47,234 nt of DNA from IMG/VR virus record IMGVR_UViG_3300028795_000002; one strand, written 5' to 3'. The notes under the pieces are model-generated. The model did not search any database. It saw nothing but the letters and a program-made list of their open reading frames with translations, and was not told the DNA's origin. Numbering within the stretch: position 1 is the stretch's first letter; each line of letters starts with the position of its first letter. Position numbers and translations under genes: made by a program. Positions 9,408 to 47,234 of the stretch are shown here, in pieces. Source of the stretch: a virus.

Positions 9408-9707
9408 ACAACTTATATTGCTGGTGGAGTATTCGCCAAAGAGTGGGTGGCAGGGAGAGTCGGTGCGTATATTGAACAGCACCAGCACTCCTTTGACCAT
9501 CTGAGCTACCTAGCCTCCGGGATGGTGGAAGTGGAAGTTGAAGGGGAAAAGACAACCTACACTGGCCCGACTGGTATCCGTATCGCCGCCAGGAAAAACC
9601 ACAAAGTCACCGCACTCACGCCCGATGTGCTTTGGCTCTGCATCCACGCAATCCCGGATGAAATGCGAGATGTCCACTTGATTGAAAAGGCTCTGGTCTC
9701 CGAATGA
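9399..9707 (+). CDS. Cupin-fold protein (the track's TTG start at 9387 lies inside palindromic element copy 3; GTG 9399 is an alternative)
   Basis: His-rich cupin-like motif EQHQHSFDH...G.V.V.V.GE, then ...NHKV. Small beta-barrel size. Confidence 0.5.
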   Translation: MKNTTYIAGGVFAKEWVAGRVGAYIEQHQHSFDHLSYLASGMVEVEVEGEKTTYTGPTGIRIAARKNHKVTALTPDVLWLCIHAIPDEMRDVHLIEKALVSE

Positions 9708-10258
9708 AAAATATCCTAACCATCGCCCGTGGGTTGAATGTGATTCCTTTGCTGCTGGAACTCCAGCGGCAGCCTCAACTGTGGAATCAGAATCGAGCGC
9801 GCACGGAAGACCCTTCCAGTCCCCACCATGAAGCTGACGATATCTGGGTCCGCTACGGGGCGGGAGAATCTGGCTACGGCGGACAACCCCACACCAGCGT
9901 ATGGCTAGAAGCTGCTGACCTTCTCCCACAAGCCAAGGCCGACGCTCGTGCTATCCTCAACCTCGTTCGGGGGGACGCTCTCGGCGGCATTCTCATCACG
10001 CGAATCCCTCCGGGGCGTAGCGTGAAGCCTCATGTAGATCGTGGCTGGCATGCTCTCGAATATGACAAATTCGCTCTGCAAGTCGCTGCACACCCCCAAC
10101 AAGCCTTTTGCTATGAAGAAGGGCAACACATCACAGCTCCTGGGGATCTTTACTGGTTCCATAACCAGGAGCAGCATTGGGTAATTAATGAATCTCCAGT
10201 CGAACGCATTACAATGATTGTCTGCGTGAAACTGGATAAACCATTTGGAGGTGCATAG
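9704..10258 (+). CDS. Asp/Asn beta-hydroxylase-like 2OG-Fe(II) oxygenase (184 aa)
   Basis: RIPPGRSVKPHVDRGWH...F.LQV...GDLYWFHNQEQHWVINESPVERITMIVCV matches the remembered H-x-D...H pattern and the trailing N.S...R..LI motif of the Asp/Arg hydroxylase family. Confidence 0.6.
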   Translation: MKNILTIARGLNVIPLLLELQRQPQLWNQNRARTEDPSSPHHEADDIWVRYGAGESGYGGQPHTSVWLEAADLLPQAKADARAILNLVRGDALGGILITRIPPGRSVKPHVDRGWHALEYDKFALQVAAHPQQAFCYEEGQHITAPGDLYWFHNQEQHWVINESPVERITMIVCVKLDKPFGGA

Positions 10259-15707: not shown

Positions 15708-15728
15708 TAAAACCTAGGGGAAAACCCT

Positions 15729-24905: not shown

Positions 24906-25124
24906 TCATATAACATCATCATTATGAGCTGGATCGAGTAGTATGCGAAATCTAAAGGCATCTTTGGTCCTTTCTGGTTTGTGTAAGGCTTTCAGCCGAG
25001 CGTCTACAGCTTTGAAGAATTCGGCAAGCCATACTGCGACTTGTTCTGGTTCGAGCCCGGAGCAGACATTTAGCTGGATGAAGGTGCCGTCATTCATTGA
25101 GAGGAAAACGAAATAGGAGTACAT
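24906..25124 (-). CDS. Hypothetical protein (72 aa from ATG 25124)
   Basis: TAATG overlap with the polymerase stop. It is the last gene of the minus arm. Confidence 0.45.
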   Translation of the reverse strand: MYSYFVFLSMNDGTFIQLNVCSGLEPEQVAVWLAEFFKAVDARLKALHKPERTKDAFRFRILLDPAHNDDVI

Positions 25125-27526
25125 TAGCCACACTCTCCCCAAGATTTTTCACTGGACACCACCCCCACCGGAATGTAGAGGGGATCTTCATATGGTATTG
25201 CAATTGATGCCGCATTGCGAATCAGTTCTAATGCCTCGTCTTTCCTAGAAGTCGGAAACTGCCCCGCGAGCGAATCGTGGACTTGTAGTAAGATCTGAAT
25301 CCAATCACCGTAGGCATCGTCGATAGCCACATATGCGCGATTAATGAGACAAGCGACAGATGACTGCGGTATCCAAGCGATAGCCTGGTTAAAGATAGTC
25401 CCTTCGATTTTGTCGAAAAAGTAATTCCGATAGCCAAAAGCGTTCTCCACGTATCGTCGTGAGGAAACCTGTTTTTTGATATCACTTTGCCACTTGGCAA
25501 TCTCAGGACATAATCCAAAGTACCATTTTTGGATACGCTCAGTTTCATGTACATTGAGCCCGATCCTAGGAGCAATACCTTCCGCTGTGCCGAGATAGTT
25601 TGTCCCGTGACACAGGGATTTAAACATCGCATACTCGCGTGGGTGCGAGTTCTTCGACATACTTTGGTCATGGTAGTATTCCTTCATCACTTCCACATAG
25701 GGCTTGCGGCCAGCTTTGAAGTTTTCTTTCATCCATTCGCAGCCGGATTCCCAGGTAACAATTCGGAGGTCGGCACTATCGAGATCGATGTCGAAGAAGG
25801 TGTGGCCTTCATCCGGGATGAAAATATTTCGAATGTTCGGTAGTTCTAGCCCAGCATCTGCAGTCTCCCCGCCTTTGGGGATATTCTGCATGTTCATCCC
25901 GCTGCCGAATGCGTTCTTGCTGGATGAAAAGCGGTAGGTTTCCGTACCGGCAATGTTGAAGGAGCAACGCATTCTGCGATCCGCGTCGAGGGGAGCCAGC
26001 ACGAAAGTGGAATGGAACACTCCCAAAGAGCGAAGTTCAGAGATCTTGCGTATGACAGGCCACAAAATTGGCTCACGGGCTCCAAGAGACTGAAGAGCCG
26101 CATCATTTGTTGTGACTCCCCTGGTTCGAGAAGTAATCTTTTTAAGGCCCATCTGCCTATAAAAGAAATCCTGCATTTGCATGGGAGAGCGGTAGTTGAT
26201 TTCATAGCCTAGTACCTCACGCATCCAATGTTTGCGGGTTTCCGCCTCTCGCATGAGAGTGAGTGATAGGTCGGACCGTTTTTGTTGATCCACCCGCACA
26301 CCACGGATCATTGACTTGAGAACTTTCGGTCGTAGGGATTGCTGGAAGGAGTTGACGGATTCAAGTCCCATGCCTTTTAAGACAGACTTGAGGACATGAT
26401 AGACAGCGAGAGTGCGGCAGCTGTCTGTCGCGCAATACTCCCAATACTTCATCTCGTCCTCACCGTCCTCACCTTCTTTCCAGTCGGTGCGGTCATCCTT
26501 CCAGTAGAGGTGGTCGTCGCAGTACATTGAGGAGAGAAACCCGAGGTTCTTTGGCAAGCTGCTAAAGCAGGAATGCTGCATGAGCATTGTGTCAGCTACG
26601 TTCGTGGGGAGAATGCTCCAATGACGGTGGATGTATTGGAGATCGTAGTTGAAGTTTTGGCCGACCAGAAGAACTTTCGGATGTGTGAGGATTGCACAAA
26701 TTCTATGAACAAGTTCTGACTCTTGTTTGGGGTCCCAAAATCCTTCAGGATTTCTGAGAGGGCTCAATTGTACGCACAGTCCTTTGGTCGGTTCCCACGC
26801 GAAAGACAGACAAGTGATATGTCCCGAACGTGTTTCGATATCGCAAGATACTGGAAAGTCACCTTCACTCAAATCTATTCTATCGTGCAGCCATTCCAAA
26901 CGCTCGCACATCAATTGAAACCACTCAGCCGAATTATCTACTGCGATTAATCGAGAGTAATCACGGTGAAAAAGCCCCGGAGTCAGTGAATCCTTCTTCA
27001 CCCTCTTGAAATCGTGAACCATCCAGGGTCTGCGAGCGTATTGCAGATGGATCAAATCCACCTTCAACGTCGGGATGACCTTATACCCTGGTGTCAACAA
27101 CGAATCCATGATCGAGCTACGGTAGTTGTAGCTGGATGTTTGGCCAGTCAACGCGAACAATGCCAAATCCCCAACGGTGCAAATCACGTTGGGTTTGACG
27201 CGCTCCACCTCATCACGAATCGCCATGCACGCATCATAGAGCTTCTGCGTGATGAACTGCCCCTGAAAGTAGATGTGACTCGGCTGGCGGTCCTTTTTCT
27301 TTTCTATAATGTGCAGTTCATTGGGGTAGCAGCGAGATTTCATGACGAGGGTCATGTAGCAATCATCACGACGGATGCCTGCCTCTTGCAGCATCTTGGT
27401 GAGTTCAAATCCCCCGCCCCCGATGAAGGGCTCCCCACGACGAAGATCCTGCTCCGTTGGGTAGTCTCCGACAACCATTATCTTCGCGTTCAGAGGTCCA
27501 CTTGCACTTACCGTCATTTGAGCCAT
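25124..27526 (-). CDS. Family A DNA polymerase with 3'-5' exonuclease domain and an N-terminal UDG-superfamily-like domain (800 aa)
   Basis: Exonuclease motifs: SCDIETRS, LVGQNFNYDLQYI, YCATDSCRT. Polymerase motifs: A FFDIDLDSADLRIV, B FKSLCHGTNYLG, C LLQVHDSL. N-terminus VVGDYPTEQDLRRGEPFIGGGGFEL resembles the family-4 UDG motif GEAPG..E...G.PF.G.AG..L. Confidence 0.85.
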   Translation of the reverse strand: MAQMTVSASGPLNAKIMVVGDYPTEQDLRRGEPFIGGGGFELTKMLQEAGIRRDDCYMTLVMKSRCYPNELHIIEKKKDRQPSHIYFQGQFITQKLYDACMAIRDEVERVKPNVICTVGDLALFALTGQTSSYNYRSSIMDSLLTPGYKVIPTLKVDLIHLQYARRPWMVHDFKRVKKDSLTPGLFHRDYSRLIAVDNSAEWFQLMCERLEWLHDRIDLSEGDFPVSCDIETRSGHITCLSFAWEPTKGLCVQLSPLRNPEGFWDPKQESELVHRICAILTHPKVLLVGQNFNYDLQYIHRHWSILPTNVADTMLMQHSCFSSLPKNLGFLSSMYCDDHLYWKDDRTDWKEGEDGEDEMKYWEYCATDSCRTLAVYHVLKSVLKGMGLESVNSFQQSLRPKVLKSMIRGVRVDQQKRSDLSLTLMREAETRKHWMREVLGYEINYRSPMQMQDFFYRQMGLKKITSRTRGVTTNDAALQSLGAREPILWPVIRKISELRSLGVFHSTFVLAPLDADRRMRCSFNIAGTETYRFSSSKNAFGSGMNMQNIPKGGETADAGLELPNIRNIFIPDEGHTFFDIDLDSADLRIVTWESGCEWMKENFKAGRKPYVEVMKEYYHDQSMSKNSHPREYAMFKSLCHGTNYLGTAEGIAPRIGLNVHETERIQKWYFGLCPEIAKWQSDIKKQVSSRRYVENAFGYRNYFFDKIEGTIFNQAIAWIPQSSVACLINRAYVAIDDAYGDWIQILLQVHDSLAGQFPTSRKDEALELIRNAASIAIPYEDPLYIPVGVVSSEKSWGECG

Positions 27527-27739: not shown

Positions 27740-29110
27740 CTACTCCTTAAGCTGGTTTAGTTCCGCCATCAAGGCCTTGCCTTGCTCTGCAGGATCAATG
27801 CTTCCCAATCCTTGCAATCTTTGGAGACAAATTCCGTAATATTGCTGATTGAGTTCGATGCCTGTCGCTAGTATCTTGGCAGCATGTGCAGCAGGAAATA
27901 TGGTGCCGCTGCCAGCGAAGCTATCGAGGACTCTATCTCCTGGTCGACAGCTTCTTTTGAGCAAATCGCTGTACAGAGCCACTGGTTTCTGAGCCCCGTG
28001 GGAAGTATTTGGATCCGCAAAGGTCGTGATAACATCTGGATAGATTCCAAGTGTTTTCTTCTTGCCCTTGATAGCATAGAGGATCATCTCCCATTGGCGA
28101 CGGGGGCCGTGTTCGGGGTGGGGGACGCGACCAGAGTTGGGCTTGGTGCAGATAAACGGAGTACGGGTGACCCACCAACCGGCTCCTTGCATAATTCTCT
28201 TGAGTTCGTGAAAATTGTCGAGATCGCAGAAGACATAAGCGTGAGCCTCCTGTTTTGCCACCCTGTAGGCCAACGGTGCCCATTCTGCCATGAGAGATCG
28301 CCAAGATTCGTAATCATCTCTGTAGTGGTGTTCAATTCCACCCATCTTTCCAGCGCTATCACCGAATTCATCTGCTCCCATCCCGTAAGGTGGGTCTGTG
28401 AGAATAACATCAAATTGCTCCGGGTCAGTGGAAAGCATCCATGAGATGCAGTTCGTGTTGAAAATCTTATGGGATTCGTGCGTGAGGGTAGAACCGATTT
28501 GCTTGGCAAGTTCCTTATGCTTCTTCGCTTCTTCCATCTTTTTGAGGATTTTAAACCCCTCGTCAGCCGTGCGGGCTTTGGCTACCTCAGGGATGTGGAG
28601 GTAGTTGCTGACGATGATGTCCTTTCGGACTGTGTTTTGGAAGTTCCCGTCAGAGCGACCCTTGACCTCAACTGCCGTATCAGCAACAGTATGGACGCGG
28701 CCCTCAGCTTGAGCTTGCTTACTTCTAAGATTATGAAGACGGGCGAGGGCGGCAGATCGCTCTTGCCATGTGAGGTCTTTTCGCTGCAAGTTCTCATCAA
28801 GTTCCGCCTGCTCTGCTTCGAGTGGCGAGAGCTGGCCGAGGGTAACGTAGGGTAGGAATCCATCAGGTATCACCTCCTCATTATAGCGGACCTCGCCGCC
28901 GAGCATTCGCACCTCAGCCACGGCACGCATTCGGCGTTCTCCCGCGACGAGAACCATAGCGCCATCACGCTCCCGGAGAACAATCGCATGCATGAGGCCG
29001 TGCATACGAACGCCCGCCGCTAGTTCGGCTAGGTCTTGCGAGTTGAATTCCCTGCGCTGCCGGTTAGGGTCAATGATGACATCAGATGTTTTGATTAGTT
29101 GAGCTTGCAT
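27740..29110 (-). CDS. ParB-like N-terminal domain fused to an N6/N4 DNA methyltransferase (456 aa)
   Basis: ParB box LVAGERRMRA. Methyltransferase motif IV LTDPPYGMG and motif I VLDSFAGSGT, in beta-class order. Confidence 0.8.
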   Translation of the reverse strand: MQAQLIKTSDVIIDPNRQRREFNSQDLAELAAGVRMHGLMHAIVLRERDGAMVLVAGERRMRAVAEVRMLGGEVRYNEEVIPDGFLPYVTLGQLSPLEAEQAELDENLQRKDLTWQERSAALARLHNLRSKQAQAEGRVHTVADTAVEVKGRSDGNFQNTVRKDIIVSNYLHIPEVAKARTADEGFKILKKMEEAKKHKELAKQIGSTLTHESHKIFNTNCISWMLSTDPEQFDVILTDPPYGMGADEFGDSAGKMGGIEHHYRDDYESWRSLMAEWAPLAYRVAKQEAHAYVFCDLDNFHELKRIMQGAGWWVTRTPFICTKPNSGRVPHPEHGPRRQWEMILYAIKGKKKTLGIYPDVITTFADPNTSHGAQKPVALYSDLLKRSCRPGDRVLDSFAGSGTIFPAAHAAKILATGIELNQQYYGICLQRLQGLGSIDPAEQGKALMAELNQLKE

Positions 29111-38320: not shown

Positions 38321-38932
38321 TTACTCGTCACCACCACCCAGTTCTTCCAGCAACGCATCCGTGTCCACCGCCTCACCCTTCGGCTTTTGCTTCTTCGCGG
38401 CTTCCAGCTTCTCAATGATCGGCTTGATCGTCGGATTAGCGCGCAGGGCCAGCTTCTCCGAATTGGTCTTGCTCTTCAGGTAGCTCTTAACCTGTTCTGC
38501 GGTCTTGCCGGAGACTTCAACCAGAGCTTTCGCGAGAACCGAAAGACCAGCCATTGCCGAGCTTTCGCTCTTCGTGCGCTCCGCACCCCACTCACCAGCT
38601 TCCAGTCGCGCGATGAGTTCTTCTTCGGCGATCACCATGTCTTCCACATCTTCCAGACCTGCGACTTCATCACCGAGCTTTTGCAGCATGCCATGAGCGG
38701 CAAACTTCGCGAAGAGGGGCTTGTTCGCTGCGAGCTTCAGGCTGCGCGTTTCGCCATTTACGAAATCCAGGCGGATCGTCACGTCGAAGCCATCTTCCGA
38801 AATATCTGCGGTCTTGAGCAGTCGGCGCTTGCCTGCAAACTCCACCTCACGACCATCCGTCATGACGATGGTTTTCACTTCGCGCTTTGCCTTCGTGGTT
38901 GCTGTCGTGCCCACTTCAACATGTTCCGTCAT
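38321..38932 (-). CDS. Early protein of unknown function, paralog A (203 aa), acidic C-terminal DALLEELG tail
   Basis: Paralogous to 40507..41172. Compare HGMLQKLGD with HGLKQKLVD, and VKSYLKSKTNSEKLALRANP with VRDYLSAKTKEQRAALRKNP. It has its own consensus promoter and terminator. Confidence 0.6.
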   Translation of the reverse strand: MTEHVEVGTTATTKAKREVKTIVMTDGREVEFAGKRRLLKTADISEDGFDVTIRLDFVNGETRSLKLAANKPLFAKFAAHGMLQKLGDEVAGLEDVEDMVIAEEELIARLEAGEWGAERTKSESSAMAGLSVLAKALVEVSGKTAEQVKSYLKSKTNSEKLALRANPTIKPIIEKLEAAKKQKPKGEAVDTDALLEELGGGDE

Positions 38933-40506: not shown

Positions 40507-41172
40507 CTATTCGGAGATGGAAACGAGCTTCTTCTTGCTCGTGCGTGCGTTGAGTTTCGCGGCAACCGGAGTGGGTTGCTCTGCGATGTCCGCTTCAATC
40601 CCCGAACCATCCCCCGCGTTTTCATCCGGCTGCGGCTCCATGCCCAACTCATTGAGCAGATCGTCCGTGTTGACGCCATTCACGACCGTAGCGGCCTGCA
40701 GTTCCGCCATAATTTGCACCACACGAGGGTTTTTGCGAAGCGCGGCGCGCTGCTCTTTGGTCTTTGCCGAGAGGTAATCACGAACATACAACTCGTCACG
40801 TCCAGTCATTTTCATGAGAGCGCGGAGCAGGATGTTGTTCACGCCCGCTGTGGATGTGGTGCCCTCACCGCTCGCCCGGTTCTCATTCCACTTGCCGTCC
40901 GGCGAGGCGAGCCGATCAGCGATTTTCTTCACCGCGAGGTACTTGTCATCCACGCTGGCCGATGCGCCGGTGTCGAGGTTCCGAGAGATCGCTGCAGCAT
41001 CTACGAGTTTTTGCTTCAGCCCGTGGAGAATTGCCATGTTGCGGATGTCGTCATTGAGTACGTTGGCATCTACGACAATCTCTTTCCCGTTTGAGAAGTT
41101 GAGTGTAAGCGTCATTTTCGGGAGGTAGACGTCAGCGGAGATTGTGGACTTCTTGCTGGATACGATTGCCAT
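40507..41172 (-). CDS. Early protein of unknown function, paralog B (221 aa)
   Basis: Paralog of 38321..38932. Contains an internal NTDDLLNELG motif followed by an acidic/basic tail. AGAGGCTCA leader box. Confidence 0.6.
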   Translation of the reverse strand: MAIVSSKKSTISADVYLPKMTLTLNFSNGKEIVVDANVLNDDIRNMAILHGLKQKLVDAAAISRNLDTGASASVDDKYLAVKKIADRLASPDGKWNENRASGEGTTSTAGVNNILLRALMKMTGRDELYVRDYLSAKTKEQRAALRKNPRVVQIMAELQAATVVNGVNTDDLLNELGMEPQPDENAGDGSGIEADIAEQPTPVAAKLNARTSKKKLVSISE

Positions 41173-41293: not shown

Positions 41294-41437
41294 CTATTTG
41301 CACATCATGATGACTACGGTCACGACCAGCCCGATGCACAACACGTAGCATGCTCCGAGTGCGAGAAATTCTTTCCATAGCGGGATGTCGTGCCGATTCG
41401 CGCGCCGCCATCCGATTGAGTGGGAGTGGTGTTTCAT
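41294..41437 (-). CDS. Possible small membrane protein (47 aa, MKHHSHSIGWRRANRHDIPLWKEFLALGACYVLCIGLVVTVVIMMCK)
   Basis: Translated by hand. ATGA overlap with the upstream ORF. C-terminal transmembrane segment. Confidence 0.4.
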   Translation of the reverse strand: MKHHSHSIGWRRANRHDIPLWKEFLALGACYVLCIGLVVTVVIMMCK

Positions 41438-41592
41438 ACCAGATACCACACAAATTTCAAACACGCTATGACACCGACAAGCATTGCCATGACCATGACG
41501 AATGTATAGATGCCGTGGAGAGTTTCGAGGGTGTCATCACGACACAATTTCCACTCCCCTTTCCAGTACTCCCAATTCGATTGCTCGTCCAT
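41434..41592 (-). CDS. Small membrane protein (52 aa from ATG 41592)
   Basis: AGGAGG 4 nt upstream of the ATG. C-terminal TM segment IYTFVMVMAMLVGVIACLKFVWYLV. Confidence 0.5.
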   Translation of the reverse strand: MDEQSNWEYWKGEWKLCRDDTLETLHGIYTFVMVMAMLVGVIACLKFVWYLV

Positions 41593-41607
41593 ACAGCCTC
41601 CTATCGG

Positions 41608-41650
41608 GGTTTCCCCCATACTTTACTAATTAGCAATCGCGGGTGGAAAC
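41608..41650. repeat. Palindromic intergenic element, copy 14
   Basis: GGTTTCCCCCATACTTTACTAATTAGCAATCGCGGGTGGAAAC. Confidence 0.8.
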
Positions 41651-41663
41651 TCGCACTCTCAGC

Positions 41664-41804
41664 CTAACACCACACTACATCATCATAGCTCACGCAATGC
41701 AGGAACCTCACATTGCACCACACCTCGTAACACCGATGGCGGATAGCGAGGTGTAACGAGCGGTGGGTCGCGTAGACAGTCACCCCGAATTCAGCGTAGA
41801 ACAT
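41664..41804 (-). CDS. Possible small Cys/aromatic-rich protein (46 aa)
   Basis: ATG lies 1 nt after the upstream stop. Sequence MFYAEFGVTVYATHRSLHLAIRHRCYEVWCNVRFLHCVSYDDVVWC. Confidence 0.35.
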   Translation of the reverse strand: MFYAEFGVTVYATHRSLHLAIRHRCYEVWCNVRFLHCVSYDDVVWC

Positions 41805-41805
41805 C

Positions 41806-42042
41806 TCAATTCCCCTTCCCACACAACACATAATGCGCGAAGTCGCAATCCCCCGCGCCACCATTGCCACCATTCCCCCCGCCATTGCTACTAGCTCCCG
41901 ATTGCGAGCCGTGCGCAGCCGATCCTAGTGCGCCGCTATTGCCACCGCCGTGGTGCCCGTGATTGGCGGATGCGTTGGATGCGTAGACATTGGCGACTCC
42001 ACATACGACTAGGAGAACTACGCCGAAAAGAATTTGTTTCAT
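41806..42042 (-). CDS. Secreted Gly/His/Asn-rich small protein (78 aa) with Sec signal peptide and a C-terminal Cys pair
   Basis: Signal peptide MKQILFGVVLLVVCGVANVYA|SNAS. Then HGHHGGGNSG...GGGNGGNGGAGDCDFAHYVLCGKGN. Confidence 0.55.
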   Translation of the reverse strand: MKQILFGVVLLVVCGVANVYASNASANHGHHGGGNSGALGSAAHGSQSGASSNGGGNGGNGGAGDCDFAHYVLCGKGN

Positions 42043-42212
42043 GACAGCACCCCCACCACACTAATAACAGCGGACACGTCCAATCCGAATGCCTCTACAT
42101 CGGCCCAGAAATCCTTTACAGCTTGCTCCGCCGCTTCAGCCCTATACTCGTGAGTCGTAATACCACTGCCCGCGATAGGTGCGGCGAGCACGGTGATTTG
42201 GTACTTTCTCAT
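42039..42212 (-). CDS. Hypothetical protein (57 aa from ATG 42212)
   Basis: G-rich RBS. ATGA overlap with the downstream gene. Confidence 0.45.
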   Translation of the reverse strand: MRKYQITVLAAPIAGSGITTHEYRAEAAEQAVKDFWADVEAFGLDVSAVISVVGVLS

Positions 42213-42293
42213 GACGCCCCCTTCGTTACGTGAACAACCGGACGGGTGATGTAGTAAACCCCGTCTACCCAAGCGATGAATTGATGTTGCATG

Positions 42294-42476
42294 CTATTTC
42301 CCCTCTACCAACAGGTCGCCGTGAATCCAATCTGCATACTCACCGAAAGTCGTCCTGAAATTTACGAGATACCGCTCACCCGTCTCGTCAGATTCCGCGA
42401 GCACGACATAACCGCACGCGTCGTTTGCCTCATGCGCACTACACACAACCCGAACCAGAGACCCGATTGCGAACAT
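42294..42476 (-). CDS. Hypothetical protein (60 aa)
   Basis: AAGGAG RBS. Confidence 0.5.
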   Translation of the reverse strand: MFAIGSLVRVVCSAHEANDACGYVVLAESDETGERYLVNFRTTFGEYADWIHGDLLVEGK

Positions 42477-42488
42477 TTCTATCTCCTT

Positions 42489-42983
42489 TTAATTGTTACC
42501 GTACAGAAATTGATCCAGCTCCTTCTCATCCCGGATTTCCACCGTGGCCCAATAAGTCTGCCCTTTACCCGTATTACGTTCGTCTCTAACTTCAATCACA
42601 TCCGATGCATAGTTGATATGTGCGATGTGATTTTTACTTAACACACTAAACATATAGTTCAGCTCCTTTGCCCGCTCATTTGCCGTGATCAATGCGTCAC
42701 GTGCTTCTTTCGTACGCGGGCACCGATCAAACACCGTGTTGGCATGTTCACATTGCTTGCACATCATTTTAAGTTCAGACGGCGTGTAGAACCCCCGCAT
42801 GGATACCCCGAACGAGCCATCATCAATCACGAACTCGCAGGGCAGTTCGAATCCGAGTTCCGGGAACATTGCCATCAACTCATCACTAGTGATTACGCCG
42901 TTGCTCATTTCAATCTCCGGTTGGTTGCATACCGCATTTCGGGCGTTGCATGCTGCGGTACTACGGTTAGAAATATAGACCAT
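42489..42983 (-). CDS. Hypothetical protein, first gene of the early arm (164 aa; alternative start M26 at 42908)
   Basis: GAGGCTTGG leader upstream. No motif recognised. Confidence 0.5.
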   Translation of the reverse strand: MVYISNRSTAACNARNAVCNQPEIEMSNGVITSDELMAMFPELGFELPCEFVIDDGSFGVSMRGFYTPSELKMMCKQCEHANTVFDRCPRTKEARDALITANERAKELNYMFSVLSKNHIAHINYASDVIEVRDERNTGKGQTYWATVEIRDEKELDQFLYGNN

Positions 42984-43046
42984 TTTCCAAGCCTCAACGC
43001 GATGATATTTATCTATCAGGTTCTACGTGGCTGACTATCGGATGTA

Positions 43047-43083
43047 ATCGACTACCATCTCACCTAACTGACTCGCGGGTAAG
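43047..43083. repeat. Left arm of a long-range inverted repeat bracketing the divergent control region
   Basis: AATCGACTACCatctcacctAACTGaCTCGCGGGTAAG. Its reverse complement matches 43517-43555 in blocks of 12/12, 5/5, 4/4 and 11/11. Confidence 0.8.
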
Positions 43084-43516
43084 CCATTTCGTATGTGAAC
43101 AACTCGCACGACTGACAATACATATTAGAGGAATGAGGAGATGAATCAGCCATGGAGCTACGGTACGCGTGACACCTAATCGCTAGCCCCTCCCACTCAC
43201 TACCGTCATTAGCATAGCACGCTAGCTCTCATGGTCAGCCATCGATGTGAGGCCGTGTGTTAGAGCTATCGCTTTAGATGTATGTGAGTGGTCACTATCG
43301 GGCTGCGGGCTGCCAAATGTTGATAATTGGTGATTATGTCAAATGGGGAGTGCGCGAGGGGTAGGGAGGGGGAAATTCCGAAGGAGGTGTGAAAATTTGC
43401 AAGACACCATCCTATTTTTTCTGAAATTTTTCAATTCTCTCGATTACTGATAACAATTCCTAGCATCCTACTGTTAGTTTTTTCTCTTAGTAGGGGTTTT
43501 TCTCATAATTTATTCC

Positions 43517-43555
43517 CTTACCCGCGAGCCAGTTTGCGAGAGGGGGTAGTCGATT
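43517..43555. repeat. Right arm of the long-range inverted repeat
   Basis: CTTACCCGCGAGcCAGTTtgcGAGAgggGGTAGTCGATT. Confidence 0.8.
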
Positions 43556-43579
43556 GCGGTGCGTGCGAGGCTGTAGGTG

Positions 43580-43622
43580 GGTTTCCTTCCGGGATTACTA
43601 ATTGTTAATTTATGTAGAAAAT
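43580..43622. repeat. Palindromic intergenic element, copy 15
   Basis: GGTTTCCTTCCGGGATTACTAATTGTTAATTTATGTAGAAAAT. It lies in the divergent control region, 25 nt from the right inverted-repeat arm. Confidence 0.8.
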
Positions 43623-43733
43623 CCGCTGAATTGTTGTTCTGTCCCTAGTTGTTGCTGGCTGACCTCACGGGGGCTTCGCGCGTAGCGTGCGAATATGTTA
43701 TCTTCACGTTAAATTAGCCCCTGGAGGGATGCA

Positions 43734-44060
43734 ATGAAACTGAAATATACCCATGAAGCGATGATTGATCTGATTATTGCTGAGCCGACAGTCACGAATA
43801 AGGAACTTGCCACGATCTTCGATTACTCGGAAGCGTGGATTTCCCACATCCGATGTGCAGATAGCTTTCAGTCCCGAATCGCGGAGCGGAAGGCCTTGTT
43901 GGTCGATCCAGCTATCCGTCGTTCTATCGAAGATCGCCTGTCTGGCATCACCGTCAAAGCAATAGACCGAATCCAGGAGGTTCTCGATGGACCCGACGCT
44001 TCTGCATCATTTGCTCTTGATGCTCTTGGCATTGCTGCAACCGGCCTGAAGGGGCTGTGA
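43734..44060 (+). CDS. Small-terminase-like HTH protein, paralog 1 (108 aa)
   Basis: GGAGGG RBS. Lies upstream of TerL. Paralogous to the next gene (YTHEAMIDLIIAEPTVTNKELATIF...W...SFQ). Confidence 0.5.
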   Translation: MKLKYTHEAMIDLIIAEPTVTNKELATIFDYSEAWISHIRCADSFQSRIAERKALLVDPAIRRSIEDRLSGITVKAIDRIQEVLDGPDASASFALDALGIAATGLKGL

Positions 44061-44623
44061 TGTCCGACGAATTTGCAATAGCTATTCAACAGATGGCTGA
44101 TGCGAATACACTTGCATCTACAAGCCCTCCTACAGCCTCTTCCGCTCTTCGCTACTCGCCAGAACTGATGGTTGACATCATCCTCAACAATCCTGACTAC
44201 AGCCCGAAGCAGCTCGGAGAGATTTTCGGCCGTCCGCAGTCGTGGGTGGCGCAGGTGCTTGCCTCCCAGTCTTTTCAAACCGCTCTCGATCCACATCGCT
44301 CGCAGGTACTCAATCCCGAATATGCAATGACTCTTGAAGAGCGCTTTCGTGGCCTAACCATTCGCTCTCTGACTGTCCTCCAGGAAAAGCTCGAAGCGGG
44401 CAAGGCTCTCCCTGACATGACTGTAGTTAAGATCGCCGAACTCGGGATCAAGGCACTGGGCGTGGGGCAGAAGGTAGAAAAGCCAATCTCTCCTGAAGAC
44501 ATCCCCCAGAACTCTTCAGAGAAGGTCGCGGAGCGCATCATGGCGGCTATGCAAAAGCGAAAAGAAGCGGAAGCGTCCAACACCGTGGATGTGGAAGTGA
44601 AGGAAATCCCGAATGGCGAATAG
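44060..44623 (+). CDS. Small-terminase-like HTH protein, paralog 2 (187 aa)
   Basis: YSPELMVDIILNNPDYSPKQLGEIF...W...SFQ aligns with paralog 1. It overlaps the TerL start, the usual terS position. Confidence 0.55.
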   Translation: MSDEFAIAIQQMADANTLASTSPPTASSALRYSPELMVDIILNNPDYSPKQLGEIFGRPQSWVAQVLASQSFQTALDPHRSQVLNPEYAMTLEERFRGLTIRSLTVLQEKLEAGKALPDMTVVKIAELGIKALGVGQKVEKPISPEDIPQNSSEKVAERIMAAMQKRKEAEASNTVDVEVKEIPNGE

Positions 44624-46109
44624 TCTGCAGACAACTCTCAAGAGAACAGAACTCAATGCCGAACTCATTGAGGGCTTTGCTGTAACCTATCTCTACTCAG
44701 GCTTTGACGAGCCTAAACCGACCCCTCAATTCCACCGGGAAGGTTGGGAGTTGTATAGCTCGAATGCCCTGCAGGCCTCTGTCATCGCCCCGCGCGGTCA
44801 CGCCAAATCCTCCGCACTCACCCATGTCTTTATCCTAGCGACGTGCCTGTTCCGGGTAGAATCCTACGTCATCCTCATTTCCACTAATGAGGAATTGGCA
44901 ATTGAACACTTGGGCGACATCAGCCGGGAGCTAACTGAAAATGAAGAACTCATCACCGACTTCGGAATCAAAGGATTCATCACCAACAGCAAAACTGAAA
45001 TCATCGTTGAATTCAATGATGGACACCAGTTCCGAATACTTGCTCGGGGGTCGGGGCAGAAACTGCGAGGGCGTAAGTGGCGCGGTATGCGACCAGGTCT
45101 TATCGTCTGCGATGATCTTGAAGATGATGAACAAGTTGAAAATAAAGAACGACGGGAAAAGTTTAGAAAATGGTTCAATCGTGCTGCCATGCCGGCACTG
45201 CGGAGAGGCGGTAAGATTCGAGTGCATGGGACCATCCTGCATGAGGATTCATTACTAGCCCGCTTCCACAAGCAAACCCGCGAGAACAAGAGCTGGCAGG
45301 TAAAATTCTACAAGGCTCACAAAGCCTATGATGATTTCTCCGAAATCCTCTGGCCGGAGCAGTTCACCGAATCCGACCTCCAGGCAATCCGCCAGCGATA
45401 CATCGACGATAACGACTCTTCTGGCTATTCCCAAGAATACCTCAACGATCCTTATGACAACACGGACGGCTACCTCAAGAAAGAATACTTCAACCCGATG
45501 GAAGAAGAGGACTTCGATGCGGACGTGCAGATTGCTGCTGGGGTCGATTTTGCTATTAGTAAGGCTGCTAAAGCAAACCGCAGCTCGTTCACATTCGCGG
45601 GCAGGACGGTAAACAACACTCTCAACTTCTTCCATCAGGACAAGGGCCGATGGGGGACAGATGAAATCATTGACAAAATGCTGGAGTATGAAGAACAGAT
45701 CCATCCTGATGTGTGGTTTGTCGAAGATGGTGTGATCTGGAAAGCGATCGAGCCGATCCTTCTGCAGGACATGCGGATCAAAAACATCTTCCTCAATATC
45801 GTCCCTCTTCCCTCGGTTAAGGACAAAGCCACTCGCGGACGATCCTGGCAGAAGCGTATGAAAGCGGCTACCTGCAAATTCGATAAGCAAGCCGAATGGT
45901 ATCCCGACTACGAACACGAATGCCTGCGGTTCACTGGCTACTCCGACTCGATCCTTGATGACCAATTCGACAGCTCTGCTATCTTGTCCCGAGGCTTCGA
46001 CTCTCTACCTATGATGACTGAAGAAGACTTCATGACCGAGGAAGAGCTGGAAGCAGCCCGCACCGATCCGCCTGGGCATCAAGGCCGAAACGCAACTACA
46101 GGATATTAA
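44613..46109 (+). CDS. terL: Terminase large subunit
   Basis: Walker A-like VIAPRGHAKSS. Walker B LIVCDDLEDDE. The size (498 aa) and position before the portal fit TerL. Confidence 0.85.
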   Translation: MANSLQTTLKRTELNAELIEGFAVTYLYSGFDEPKPTPQFHREGWELYSSNALQASVIAPRGHAKSSALTHVFILATCLFRVESYVILISTNEELAIEHLGDISRELTENEELITDFGIKGFITNSKTEIIVEFNDGHQFRILARGSGQKLRGRKWRGMRPGLIVCDDLEDDEQVENKERREKFRKWFNRAAMPALRRGGKIRVHGTILHEDSLLARFHKQTRENKSWQVKFYKAHKAYDDFSEILWPEQFTESDLQAIRQRYIDDNDSSGYSQEYLNDPYDNTDGYLKKEYFNPMEEEDFDADVQIAAGVDFAISKAAKANRSSFTFAGRTVNNTLNFFHQDKGRWGTDEIIDKMLEYEEQIHPDVWFVEDGVIWKAIEPILLQDMRIKNIFLNIVPLPSVKDKATRGRSWQKRMKAATCKFDKQAEWYPDYEHECLRFTGYSDSILDDQFDSSAILSRGFDSLPMMTEEDFMTEEELEAARTDPPGHQGRNATTGY

Positions 46110-46114
46110 CCGCT

Positions 46115-47234
46115 ATGTCAGCAACAATTGCGCAGCAAGATTCGGTCAGCATGCCCGCAGAGCCAGAAATCAAACAGCGATTTGATCTGGATGAGATTTT
46201 GAACAGTCCGAATTTGGCAGAAAAGCTGGATGAGGACACGCGGAAGGCTCTCGGTCGCTGGGTCGTTGGGGGTTATGTGAAAGACATCTCCAGCCGCACT
46301 CAATGGTCTGAGCAACATGCAGAGGCTATGAAGATCGCCCTGCAGGTGAAGGAGATGAAGAATTTCCCCTGGACAAATGCGAGCAATGTGAAGTTTCCGT
46401 TGGTGACTGTCGGAGCATTGCAATTCCTCGCGCGAATCTCCATCCTTACCAAAGGCAGTAATCTGGCTAACTTCCGAATTCAAGGGGAAGATCCTGAAGG
46501 AAAGAAGATGGCCAGGGCAAAACGGATTAGTCGGCATATTAATATCCAGCTGACTGATGATGACCCGGCATGGGCGGATATGGATGAGCAGACGAAATTC
46601 GCGGCTAGCTTGCTCGGATCGGCTTTTAAGAAAACCAGTTACGACGCAGTTTCTGGGATCAACTGCAGCGAGTTCGTCCCGGCACAGAACTTCGTAGTTG
46701 ATTACAACTGCAAGAACCTGCTCACGGCTCAGCGCTACACCCATGTGATTAACATGGATGAGAACAAGCTGATGGAGAGGATTCATCGGAAGATCTTTAT
46801 CAAGGAAGAAAACACCCACGCGTCATCTCCTGACCAGATCATGGTCAACATGCTGGAACGTGCCGCCAGAGAAGTCCAAGGCCTCTCCCCGAATGCCGAA
46901 TCCGAAGATGTTCGAGTGCTGGAGCAGTATTGCTGGTTGGATCTTGATGGTGACGGCTATCGGGAGCCCTATATTATCAGCGTACGAGAAGATACTGGCC
47001 ACTTGTACCGTATTGTTGCTCGCTTTTATGATGATGGTTCTATCCACAGGCGGTTAGACGCGCGTCAACGCCAATTTGAAACTCTGGCAAACCTTGCAAC
47101 AGATGCTGCACAAGCCTCCCTTTTGGAAAGACGTGCTGTCGCCGTTCGTAACAGCAAAGAGAACACGGTCATCCGAATCGACCCGGTGCAGTTCTTTACT
47201 AAATACACCTTTGTGCCATCCCCCGATGGTGGGT
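46115..47234 (+). CDS. Portal protein, N-terminal part. The ORF runs off the window end and continues in frame at base 128. Full ORF 46115 -> wrap -> 1284, about 758 aa
   Basis: ATG at 46115, 5 nt after the TerL stop; open to the window end. Translation starts MSATIAQQDS... and includes ...WLDLDGDGYREPYIISV... Its frame matches ORF 16..1284 through the 127-bp overlap. Size and position directly after TerL fit a portal. Confidence 0.8.
   Translation, partial: MSATIAQQDSVSMPAEPEIKQRFDLDEILNSPNLAEKLDEDTRKALGRWVVGGYVKDISSRTQWSEQHAEAMKIALQVKEMKNFPWTNASNVKFPLVTVGALQFLARISILTKGSNLANFRIQGEDPEGKKMARAKRISRHINIQLTDDDPAWADMDEQTKFAASLLGSAFKKTSYDAVSGINCSEFVPAQNFVVDYNCKNLLTAQRYTHVINMDENKLMERIHRKIFIKEENTHASSPDQIMVNMLERAAREVQGLSPNAESEDVRVLEQYCWLDLDGDGYREPYIISVREDTGHLYRIVARFYDDGSIHRRLDARQRQFETLANLATDAAQASLLERRAVAVRNSKENTVIRIDPVQFFTKYTFVPSPDGG
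47108..47234. repeat. Terminal direct repeat (copy 2); identical to 1-127
   Basis: Same 127-nt string as bases 1-127. Confidence 0.95.

Follow-up and report, generated by a model that had tools for sequence, protein, structure and literature searches.

In the lac operon the main operator is accompanied by auxiliary operators on either side. The nutL and nutR sites of phage lambda, each containing boxA and boxB, occur as an inverted pair, one on each of the two divergent early sides. In lambdoid phages cosN and cosB show a pattern of core and flank, and cosB co-evolves with Nu1. The pac region of Bacillus phage SPP1 overlaps promoters and the 5' end of gene 1; there TerS binds the two sites that flank pacC, namely pacL and pacR, and also acts as a repressor of its own synthesis (PMC6316719). 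Lactococcal phages of the c2 type (Ceduovirus) have their origin in the non-coding stretch that separates the divergent early and late blocks, and no phage proteins are needed for its function (PMC7150918).

The locus described here belongs to a stretch of viral DNA of 47,234 nucleotides (the window). A left arm of 38 nt (43046-43083) and a right arm of 39 nt (43517-43555) form an inverted repeat that encloses the control region. The arms stand at both exits of the gene-free region, with leftward early genes on one side and rightward terminase and late genes on the other. The features of the locus are as follows.

42489-42983, minus strand: first leftward (early) ORF, 164 aa, with no homologue in any relative
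43020-43047, minus strand: degenerate early-promoter remnant (TTACAT, 16 nt, TAGAAC), which fails the promoter criteria in this genome
43046-43083, no strand: left arm; read outward (leftward), inner box CTTACCCGCGAGTCAG, spacer, outer box GGTAGTCGATT
43122-43127, minus strand: -10-like hexamer TAATAT, facing leftward about 40 nt inside the left arm; at the alignment column in 11 of 17 relatives
43187-43200, plus strand: C-rich tract in the less conserved left half, present in most relatives and absent, for example, in L063
43211-43216: second inner -10-like hexamer, TATGCT; at the alignment column in 12 of 17 relatives
43320-43342, no strand: central imperfect palindrome TTGATAAT-N7-ATTATGTCAA, unique in the genome
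43358-43436, plus strand: core, deeply conserved in the alignment of relatives; G-tract GGGGTAGGGAGGGGGAAA, then GTGAAAATTTGCAAGACACCATCCTA, then TTTTTTCTGAAATTTTTCAA
43400-43516, no strand: A+T-rich tract (67-70% A+T) between the core and the right arm
43517-43555, no strand: right arm, the better conserved copy; CTTACCCGCGAGCCAG, then TTTGCGAGAGGG, then GGTAGTCGATT
43578-43622, no strand: copy 15 of a dispersed palindromic element of 45 nt, between the right arm and arm3
43657-43676, plus strand: arm3, a degenerate third copy oriented like the left arm; the first rightward ORF follows about 79 nt downstream
43694-43704, plus strand: -10-like TATGTT and TG-T-TATCTT, 30-40 nt ahead of the first rightward ORF; in 13 of 17 relatives
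43734-44623, plus strand: two unannotated paralogous helical proteins of 108 aa (43734-44060) and 188 aa (44057-44623)
44613-46109, plus strand: terminase large subunit (phrog_38, E 1.1e-66)

The inverted repeat is real and stands far above chance. In a global alignment the left arm and the reverse complement of the right arm share 33 matches with 5 mismatches and 1 gap; a repeat search breaks the structure at the indel into pieces of 18 nt (94%) and 16 nt (88%). Inverted repeats with a spacing of 100-1200 nt were scanned by local alignment over the entire 47,107-bp genome. The arm pair scores 34, the second-best real pair 21, and the genome-wide maximum in 30 dinucleotide-preserving shuffles is 16-23 (mean 18.2, sd 1.6). 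Inward extension to 43157/43439 gains only about 5 points, which is close to noise. The original prediction had placed the start of the left arm at 43047; the repeat itself is as described, with the start moved to 43046, where one extra base pair fits. The remaining details of that description hold: all four exact arm blocks are found in the sequence, the 433 bp between the arms contain no ORF of at least 60 aa (the longest are of 31 and 35 aa), and the palindrome 43320-43342 as well as the complementary tracts CCCCTCCCACTCAC (43187-43200), GTGAGTGG (43284) and GGGAGGGG (43364) are in place. The first leftward ORF has its start codon at 42983, 63 nt away from the left arm (about 65 had been given), and the end of the right arm lies 23-25 nt from palindromic element copy 15 (given as 25) and 179 nt from the first rightward ORF at 43734 (given as about 180). 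The 35-aa ORF of the core (43343-43450) was discarded as a gene candidate, its frame and start not being kept in relatives.

Read outward, 26 arms from 14 genomes align as one sequence without gaps. The arm unit is bipartite to tripartite and spans about 38-70 nt, with weaker similarity reaching out to about 70 nt. It consists of the inner box CTTACCCGCGAGCCAG, a spacer with a second (G/C)CGAG and the outer box (A)TGTAGTC. The right-arm spacer sequence (G/C)CGAGAAAT is also kept across genomes, and in the present right arm GCGAG forms a direct repeat (43524-43528 and 43536-43540). The arm motif occurs only at this locus, and no dispersed copies of the arm boxes, the core motifs or a possible phage-specific promoter motif were found genome-wide. 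The pentamer CTGAC is just mildly enriched in the genome. The third copy, arm3, is not significant in this genome alone, where 43 of 300 shuffles reach an equal score. Its row in the list covers the degenerate stretch GGCTGACCTCACGGGGGCTT, the best local match nearby is 43672-43684, and the CTGGCTGAC motif at 43655-43663 is the positional counterpart of arm3 in relatives. A strong arm3 occupies the same position in L059 (16/18, 0/300 shuffles), L069 (0/300), L055 (1/300) and L010 (3/300). The weak arm3 of this genome is situated close to the -10 region of the late operon.

The arm pair is kept at the same location in nearly all related phage contigs, with the neighbouring protein down to 45% identity; where this protein is 45-77% identical, the arms are present within otherwise unalignable sequence. 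Homology of this genome with its relative L055 starts at 43065, within the left arm. The identity of the arms within a genome is 0.674 versus 0.584 across genomes, a difference reached in none of 20,000 permutations, and double changes are concerted in 43 cases versus 26 discordant ones. Both arms carry GGTTCG in L010, GGCGTCG in L009, GCGCC in L008 and GGGTATATAGT in L068, and in L063 the outer arm halves are far from the version of this genome yet match each other. The two arms evolve in concert. One-sided changes amount to 131, and the arms are on average only about 67% alike. L059 is devoid of the left arm but has the 16/18 third copy 118 nt to the right of its right arm; the present genome shows the converse, a strong left arm and a degenerate third copy. 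Whether left arm or arm3, the partner of the right arm is always inverted. The spacing between the arms varies from 412 to 525 bp among genomes, and the helical register is not kept. In the L066/L067 lineage the arms are lost while the core and both paralogues are retained, so the arms are dispensable in that lineage. A search of 50,697 GenBank phage records with megablast and blastn brought no meaningful match to the region. An exact-pattern scan of 185,579 bacterial and archaeal genomes gave 49 arm matches, which is about the chance expectation, and the three Acidobacteriota matches inspected all lack the core; hence these matches give no clue to the host.

Directly outside the left arm a leftward sigma-70-type early promoter is found in 10 of 15 relatives (for example, TTGACA-17-TAGAAT and TTGACA-17-TATAGT), the chance expectation of the scan being about 0.1 match per 200 nt. 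In five lineages the -35 hexamer begins 41-45 nt from the start of the inner box, i.e. about 2-5 nt past the outer box. Thus the left arm lies beside a promoter in these relatives, in this genome that promoter is degenerate, and the right arm has no sigma-70 promoter adjoining it. Between the arms no position meets the sigma-70 criteria in more than one relative. For the two inner -10-like hexamers (43122-43127 and 43211-43216) no matching -35 was found; a further conserved -10-like hexamer of the TG-n-AAATTT type faces outward close to 43420. The hexamers at 43694-43704 probably represent the promoter of the late/terminase operon. Downstream, the gene for the 188-aa protein overlaps the start of terL, and the nearest named relatives of TerL are Mu-like headful packagers. 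The gene next door had been called terS in the original prediction. It could not be identified as such: the two paralogues found in its place match no small-terminase family and no family in Pfam, PHROG or structure searches, and the predicted structure of the 188-aa protein has no Foldseek match under E 0.1. The weak best structural matches of both paralogues are all helix-turn-helix DNA binders, which makes them available as candidate DNA-binding proteins. Two early paralogues (38321-38932 and 40507-41172) are further candidate binders without family assignment. The phage encodes PolA, helicase and recombination proteins; a Pfam scan of 50 ORFs recognised no phage RNA polymerase, sigma factor, primase or initiator.

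Protein binding is the most likely role of the arms, ahead of an RNA stem or a mobile or invertible element. To the more specific reading, in which the arms are paired or auxiliary operator sites bridging the divergent control region, we assign a probability of about 0.35. The arms would be mirror-image copies of one asymmetric recognition element, a putative operator. A putative phage-encoded multimeric sequence-specific DNA-binding protein would take the right arm as its principal site and would also bind the inverted partner, that is the left arm about 0.4-0.5 kb off and/or arm3 about 0.12 kb to the right. With both sites bound, the DNA would be bridged into a loop, and this loop would couple the early promoter abutting the left arm with the promoter region of the late operon. 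We infer the binding at the arms, the identity of the binder, the looping and its regulatory outcome. The inner box and the right-arm spacer are conserved in sequence and not just in complementarity, which points to a protein site instead of a freely drifting helix. Of the four options offered in the original prediction, paired looping operators are the best supported, but the promoters do not lie between the arms. Several observations speak against operators: the outer early promoter of this genome is degenerate and fails the scan, the better conserved right arm has no adjoining sigma-70 promoter, the orientation of the left arm to the early promoter differs from that of arm3 to the late -10, and the spacing between the arms keeps no helical register. 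In addition, the length and asymmetry of the sites set them apart from classical palindromic operators, and the L066/L067 lineage lives without arms while keeping the core. Paired, co-evolving, unique sites beside terminase genes and around an A+T-rich core also fit binding by a terminase or an initiator; pac sites and origin sites are close rivals of the operators.

The core is a non-coding element of 75-80 nt common to phages with just about 38% TerL identity. It consists in brief of a G-tract, CACCNTCCTA and a T-tract, or in full of G5-N-G5-A4, about 25 nt, (A)AGGCACC(A/T)TCCTA, T6 and then AAATTTTT. Its sequence profile scores 76 bits in this genome and matches once, with unchanged orientation, in each of four distant phages, among them the isolate Alcaligenes phage vB_Af_QDWS535, on which a literature search found nothing. 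Directly to the left of the G-tract, MW202796 carries the direct repeat TTATATAAGACAT 3-4 times, and in the Alcaligenes phage ATGGGGACA is found 4-5 times left of the G-tract, partly at about 21-nt spacing; distant core-bearing phages also have (TA)n tracts. The half-sites of the central palindrome are kept in all relatives, its centre being variable in distant ones. An intrinsic terminator or an SD/anti-SD hairpin formed by the G-tract with CACCNTCC was rejected, as no consensus structure supports it. Judged by sequence comparison, the core is much older than the arms and a separate cis-acting element; it is common to a broad, mostly uncultivated phage group with terminases less than 40% identical, in the same position and orientation. 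Its function is probably that of an origin or packaging site, which the arms may not share. We consider it a tentative possibility that the core is a new cis-acting element (an origin or a packaging-cleavage site) and that the arms are repeats added by this clade and co-evolving with a specificity protein. Each clade would then add its own flanking repeats, the 38-nt arms being comparable to cosB with Nu1 in lambdoid phages. More speculatively, the arms could mark the two edges of a terminal repeat about 0.5 kb long, acting there as symmetric sites for nicking or recognition.

It is possible, though doubtful, that the arms are small-terminase sites flanking the first cut of TerL in a pac region of the SPP1 kind, with the 108-aa/188-aa paralogues as putative small terminases. 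The region lies directly upstream of these two proteins, the second of which overlaps the terL start and is laid out like a small terminase, with three short helices followed by long ones; the arm site is unique within the genome, and TerL belongs to phrog_38 with its Mu-like headful relatives. Conservation of the core with terL over a long distance, combined with clade-specific and co-evolving flanking repeats, parallels cosN versus cosB. Such a role is weakened by the failure of either paralogue to match a small-terminase family, by the size of the module (about 510 bp, bigger than known pac sites), by the left arm abutting the early and not the late promoter, and by L066/L067, which lost the arms though both paralogues are retained. 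The contigs of about 46 kb end at scattered genome positions, as for permuted or circular DNA, but when counted over contigs the ends are not enriched here relative to adjacent genes. Physical genome ends in the region were rejected: nine contigs start inside it, at scattered positions and at a density no higher than in adjacent genes. These starts fall within the left arm, at the palindrome, in the G-tract and right of the right arm; a second strain in its sample accounts for that of L007. Somewhat less likely still, the enclosed core is a replication origin, and the arms are clade-specific sites of an initiator or accessory protein flanking the unwinding region. A non-coding early/late junction, an A+T-rich tract and repeated sites, as sought for an origin, are all found. 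The gene-free and seemingly promoter-free region is large, its tract of 67-70% A+T adjoins the G-tract, the core is kept at about 38% TerL identity with distant phages having direct repeats and (TA)n tracts of their own, and PolA, helicase and recombination proteins are present, with a primase or initiator not recognised. The Ceduovirus origin is a precedent for this position between divergent blocks (PMC7150918). Against this, the arms are 412-525 bp apart, too distant to cooperate in the melting of one unwinding element, no initiator gene was recognised in the phage, and the replication genes are 8-18 kb away. Cumulative GC skew has no extreme here, though the skew is dominated by the direction of transcription. 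L066/L067 keep the core without arms, so an origin concerns the core more than the repeat.

At the RNA level, an unlikely explanation is that divergent transcripts starting inside the segment carry an arm near their 5' ends as a nut-like leader, recruiting a factor for read-through of the intergenic hairpin elements by RNA polymerase. The gapless outward alignment of all 26 arms agrees with it, as do the conserved -10-like hexamers that face outward from within the segment (the TG-n-AAATTT type near 43420 and, in 11 of 17 relatives, TAATAT at 43127-43122) and the right arm lying 25 nt ahead of a 45-nt hairpin element, of which 15-16 copies occur along both arms of the genome. The conserved inner box with a clade-specific outer box resembles boxA and boxB, and with its outer early promoter lacking, this genome may have its early genes read from inside the segment. 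But the inner promoters meet the sigma-70 criteria in no more than one relative per position, most relatives have good promoters downstream of the arms, RNAalifold on the 26 outward arm units gives 0 pairs and thus no conserved hairpin, and the hairpin elements are putative terminators. Far less probable is pairing of the arms as the closing stem of a large structured RNA or as an rRNA-type RNase III processing stalk. Either strand of the region is predicted to fold more stably than its shuffled versions (z -4.6 and -5.5), but similar z-scores on both strands are expected from any inverted repeat. Several both-side changes preserve pairing and the partner of the right arm is always inverted, while the 131 one-sided changes, the arm similarity of about 67% and the conservation of the inner box as sequence argue against a stem. 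The original prediction had proposed such a stem, and a structure search did not support it: Rfam gives no match at E up to 1 (42000-44500, both strands), the RNAalifold covariation terms of +0.86 and +0.46 are a penalty, and internal covariation was not detected. The consensus fold of 560-690 columns reaches only -29 to -33 kcal/mol without supported internal helices. On either strand RNAalifold returns just the repeat and a few short invariant hairpins, with the core alone at -1 kcal/mol and the left half of the presumed loop poorly conserved. The search found no canonical promoter reading across both arms, and both gene blocks point away, so that no transcription enters from either side. 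The ends of a MITE-like or invertible segment, also proposed, are practically dismissed, and as far as assemblies allow such an insert is ruled out. In its favour there is nothing but the geometry of about 430 bp of non-coding DNA with inverted repeats at its ends. The genome has no further copy of the arm motif, the flanking GGATGT and GCGGTG are not a target duplication, and a Pfam scan of 50 ORFs revealed no recombinase, transposase or integrase domain. Comparison with about 20 distinct relatives shows the core present and never inverted: its orientation is the same in every terL-oriented locus and also in the 100% identical contig L053 from another sample. Every relative carries the segment at the orthologous position, and homology runs uninterrupted from its right half into the flank. 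Target duplication, several copies and presence or absence between relatives, expected of a MITE or IS, were thus not observed; of the hallmarks of an inverton only the flanking inverted repeats were found, and not both orientations or a site-specific recombinase.

If the arms are paired operator-like sites, they offer a handle on early/late gene control in an uncultivated soil/peat phage clade and point to two unannotated protein families as candidate binders. The more useful by-product is the core: being conserved across about 38% TerL identity and present in a cultured Alcaligenes phage, it makes it possible to test in the laboratory what early/late junctions of this whole class do (origin, pac or both). 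In practical terms the benefit is modest, namely better annotation of origins, pac sites and regulatory regions in metagenomic phage genomes.

Comparison with invertons of the Hin/Gin/Fim type is confined to inverted repeats flanking a segment; the segment differs in its single orientation and in that no recombinase was found. With lambda nutL/nutR the locus shares two near-identical bipartite inverted elements, similar within a phage and different between phages, but the arms have no boxB-like hairpin and an N-like protein is not recognised here. The c2 origins, to our knowledge, lack a long inverted repeat on their two sides, unlike this region. In both cases a small virulent phage has a region free of genes where its early and late blocks diverge, with early promoters at the edge and no recognised phage initiator; the c2 origin needs an early-promoter transcript through it, whereas here no promoter into the core was found, and there is no sequence similarity (PMC7150918). 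The resemblance to SPP1 pac includes the non-coding or 5'-of-gene region directly upstream of the terminase genes, two flanking (here putative) protein-binding regions around a central one, the overlap with promoter elements of the terminase operon and a TerL of headful type; here, in contrast, a recognisable TerS is lacking, the module is about twice as long and the left site is at the early promoter (PMC6316719). The looping operators lac O1/O2/O3, gal OE/OI and lambda OL-OR differ in that the present arms are at least 38 nt long, asymmetric, bipartite and always inverted relative to the main copy. Here the promoters are outside the pair, helical phasing is not kept, the looped-out DNA is itself conserved and the repressor is putative. 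The likeness to these operators consists in two to three copies, 0.1-0.5 kb apart, around a promoter region, with one copy adjoining a promoter in relatives, and in one best-conserved copy with weaker flanking partners that are seemingly interchangeable, as seen in L059 versus this genome.

The inverted repeat sits in a 750-bp gap between two diverging gene blocks of a circularly closed phage genome of 47,107 bp, whose closest GenBank relative shares only 38% TerL identity. Bases 1–127 are duplicated exactly at 47108–47234, inside a gene; this 127-nt terminal duplication is an assembly overlap of a circular or permuted map and no biological terminal repeat. The rightward (late) block runs from 43734 across the junction to ~24.7 kb and encodes the terminase large subunit (phrog_38, E 1.1e-66), portal, capsid, tail fibres and lysozyme. 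The leftward block (42983 down to 25124) encodes PolA with a UDG-like N-terminus, a ParB_N-methylase fusion, HNH endonuclease, AAA_24 protein, PD-(D/E)XK nuclease and SF1 helicase. None of the window ORFs scanned was recognised as an integrase, recombinase, RNA polymerase, primase or initiator. The late-block ORF 16171–17490 matches two parts of phosphoribosylglycinamide synthetase (PurD), the ATP-grasp domain and the C-terminal domain; it could be an auxiliary metabolic gene or else encode an ATP-grasp ligase that serves another role.

Arms and selected genes of the window
43046–43083: left arm, by alignment to the right arm
43517–43555: right arm, by alignment to the left arm
25124–27526: family A DNA polymerase with N-terminal uracil-DNA-glycosylase-superfamily domain (domain match)
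27740–29110: ParB_N domain fused to N6/N4 DNA methylase (domain match)
1556–1927: GroES/Cpn10-like gene after portal (domain match), annotated in MW202796 too
9704–10258: cupin/Asp-Arg-hydroxylase-like ORF (weak domain match)

The repeat described in the original prediction is confirmed with 33 matches, 5 mismatches and one gap, and the remaining coordinates of that prediction are all correct. The arm pair scores 34 in a whole-genome inverted-repeat scan, versus 21 for the next best pair and maxima of 16–23 in 30 dinucleotide shuffles of the genome. Its inward extension to 43157/43439 is weak, near noise. Read outward from the enclosed segment, 26 arm units from 14 genomes align over ~70 nt almost gap-free: the inner box CTTACCCGCGAGCCAG is followed by a spacer with a second (G/C)CGAG, by the outer box (ATGTAGTC or TGCAATC) and by a further GCTG(A/C)(A/G). 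The right arm, spacer included, is conserved better than the left. The motif does not occur again in the rest of the genome.

The relatives comprised 14 IMG/VR contigs (TerL identity 78–91%), further metagenome contigs and loci found via 97 homologues of the adjoining 188-aa protein, ~20 distinct versions of the region in total, with 188-aa protein identity down to 45%. Blastn homology to the window starts abruptly at 43312–43319 in most of them and extends rightward; in L055, the closest relative for this region, it starts at 43065, within the left arm. Homologues of the first five leftward ORFs were found in none of the relatives searched, and synteny returns at 40507–41172; this hypervariable early accessory block (41434–42983) starts exactly at the left arm. 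Nearly all relatives keep the inverted repeat with the same inner box, the arms being 412–525 bp apart.

The two arms change together. Both carry GGTTCG in L010, GGCGTCG in L009, GCGCC in L008 and GGGTATATAGT in L068, and the outer halves in L063 differ from those of the window, yet agree with each other. Over 12 genomes, arm identity is 0.674 within a genome versus 0.584 across genomes (0/20,000 permutations), with 43 concerted, 26 discordant and 131 one-sided changes. Four relatives (L055, L010, L059 and L069) have a significant third arm copy; the window has a degenerate one. In L059, where the left arm is absent, the right arm pairs 16/18 with the third copy 118 nt to its right. The arm pair is weaker and shifted in L012/L014; in L066/L067 the arms are lost and the core is retained.

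The core elements occupy the right half of the segment between the arms. They include an invariant palindrome, TTGATAAT-N7-ATTATGTCAA, of which distant relatives keep the half-sites around a variable centre, and a G-tract followed on its right by GTGAAAATTTGCAAGGCACC(A/T)TCCTA and T-tracts. The non-coding core of ~75 nt reads G5NG5A4 ... CACCNTCCTA-T6 ... AAATTTTT; its position and orientation are kept in phages whose TerL is <40% identical, among them Alcaligenes phage vB_Af_QDWS535, an isolate. A profile built from sequence alone and spanning the G-tract through the T-tract was searched against four distant phage loci (145 kb) and gave exactly one match per locus (4/4) and nothing else, each on the terL strand in the divergent intergenic gap.

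Core positions and profile matches
Core: window 43358–43436; L079 2366–2441; L080 2651–2721; L045 1945–2014; L042 1821–1893
Match in MW202796: E 5e-6
Match in Alcaligenes phage vB_Af_QDWS535: E 5e-4
Match in L045: E 6e-3
Match in L042: E 0.024

The arms are missing from these four phages. Next to the G-tract each clade carries different short repeats of its own, and two of the four phages have (TA)n tracts. Judged by sequence, the core is an element separate from the arms and older. In the distant relative L063 (2726–2752) the G-tract has grown to four G5–G7 runs split by single A residues (G5AG6AG7AG6), a canonical G-quadruplex-forming pattern; L064, a Logan contig from this type of phage, begins within the tract.

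The promoter scan found good sigma-70-type promoters elsewhere on the early strand of the window, hence the host uses canonical promoters, and none in 42984–43733. Under the same criteria, a leftward promoter lies directly outside the left arm in 10/15 relatives, none of the relatives scanned has a promoter outside the right arm, and no promoter between the arms is conserved. The promoter outside the left arm has, in five lineages, a -35 hexamer that begins 41–45 nt from the inner-box start (e.g. TTGACA-17-TAGAAT). The outer early promoter of the window is degenerate (TTACAT 43047–43042, 16 nt, TAGAAC 43025–43020). On the right side a -35-like TTGC stands at the mirrored offset without a -10, which suggests that an arm together with its promoter was long ago duplicated in mirror image.

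Conserved -10-like hexamers without -35
43127–43122, leftward: 11/17 relatives
43216–43211, leftward: 12/17 relatives
43694–43704, rightward: 13/17 relatives, 30–40 nt before the first late ORF

Two pairs of paralogues have no family assignment: the unannotated 108-aa (43734–44060) and 188-aa (44057–44623) proteins upstream of terL, 27–34% identical, and the early 203-aa and 221-aa proteins (38321–38932, 40507–41172), 35–40% identical. None of the 97 homologues of the 188-aa family carries a name; the model of this protein is all-helical, and its best structural matches, non-significant, are helix-turn-helix DNA binders. A near-perfect 40–45-nt palindrome, GTTTCCcCCGGGATTACTAATTnGTAATCCCGGgGGAAAC, occurs in 15–16 copies in intergenic gaps of both blocks, mostly 10–30 nt ahead of start codons, and homologous copies occur in relatives. 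Three copies are immediately followed by a good sigma-70-type promoter (near 15725, 30745 and 38035). Candidate roles for the palindromes are terminators or insulators lacking a U-tract, RNA-processing hairpins and regulator sites.

Palindrome copies, ~45 nt each
2104, 5675, 9363, 14963, 15663, 15876, 17736, 22752
24753, 26930, 30779, 33915, 38049, 39870, 41606, 43578

The closing stem of a structured RNA, one of the roles originally proposed for the repeat, is not borne out. Single sequences fold better than shuffles to the same degree on either strand, which is expected of any inverted repeat; the Rfam search of the region gave no match. The RNAalifold consensus of either strand consists solely of the repeat plus a handful of short helices, most of them invariant, and its covariation term is a penalty; for the arm units alone no pairs were predicted, and the consensus fold of the core is -1 kcal/mol. 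Transcription does not enter the region, as the two gene blocks are directed away from it. A MITE-like element was rejected for want of target duplication, second copy and, among the ORFs scanned, recombinase. An invertible segment was rejected likewise: no recombinase was recognised among those ORFs, and the core has one and the same orientation in every relative and in a contig of 100% identity from a different sample.

Two to three copies of one sequence-specific recognition element would behave as the arms do: their sequence is conserved, they change in concert, they are unique in the genome and the partner is interchangeable. Only one observation links them directly to a function: in relatives the left arm adjoins the early promoter, and the third copy adjoins the late -10. 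This favours operator-like sites. We tentatively propose, with a probability of roughly 35%, that the arms are paired (main plus auxiliary) operator-like sites, which a candidate phage protein would bridge. Close rivals, both by analogy, are terminase binding and origin function; either would suit the core at least as well as the arms. As putative terminase binding sites the arms are likened to pacL/pacR of SPP1, which terminase binds (PMC6316719). The origin of Ceduovirus is located between divergent early and late blocks (PMC7150918), as is the region in the window.
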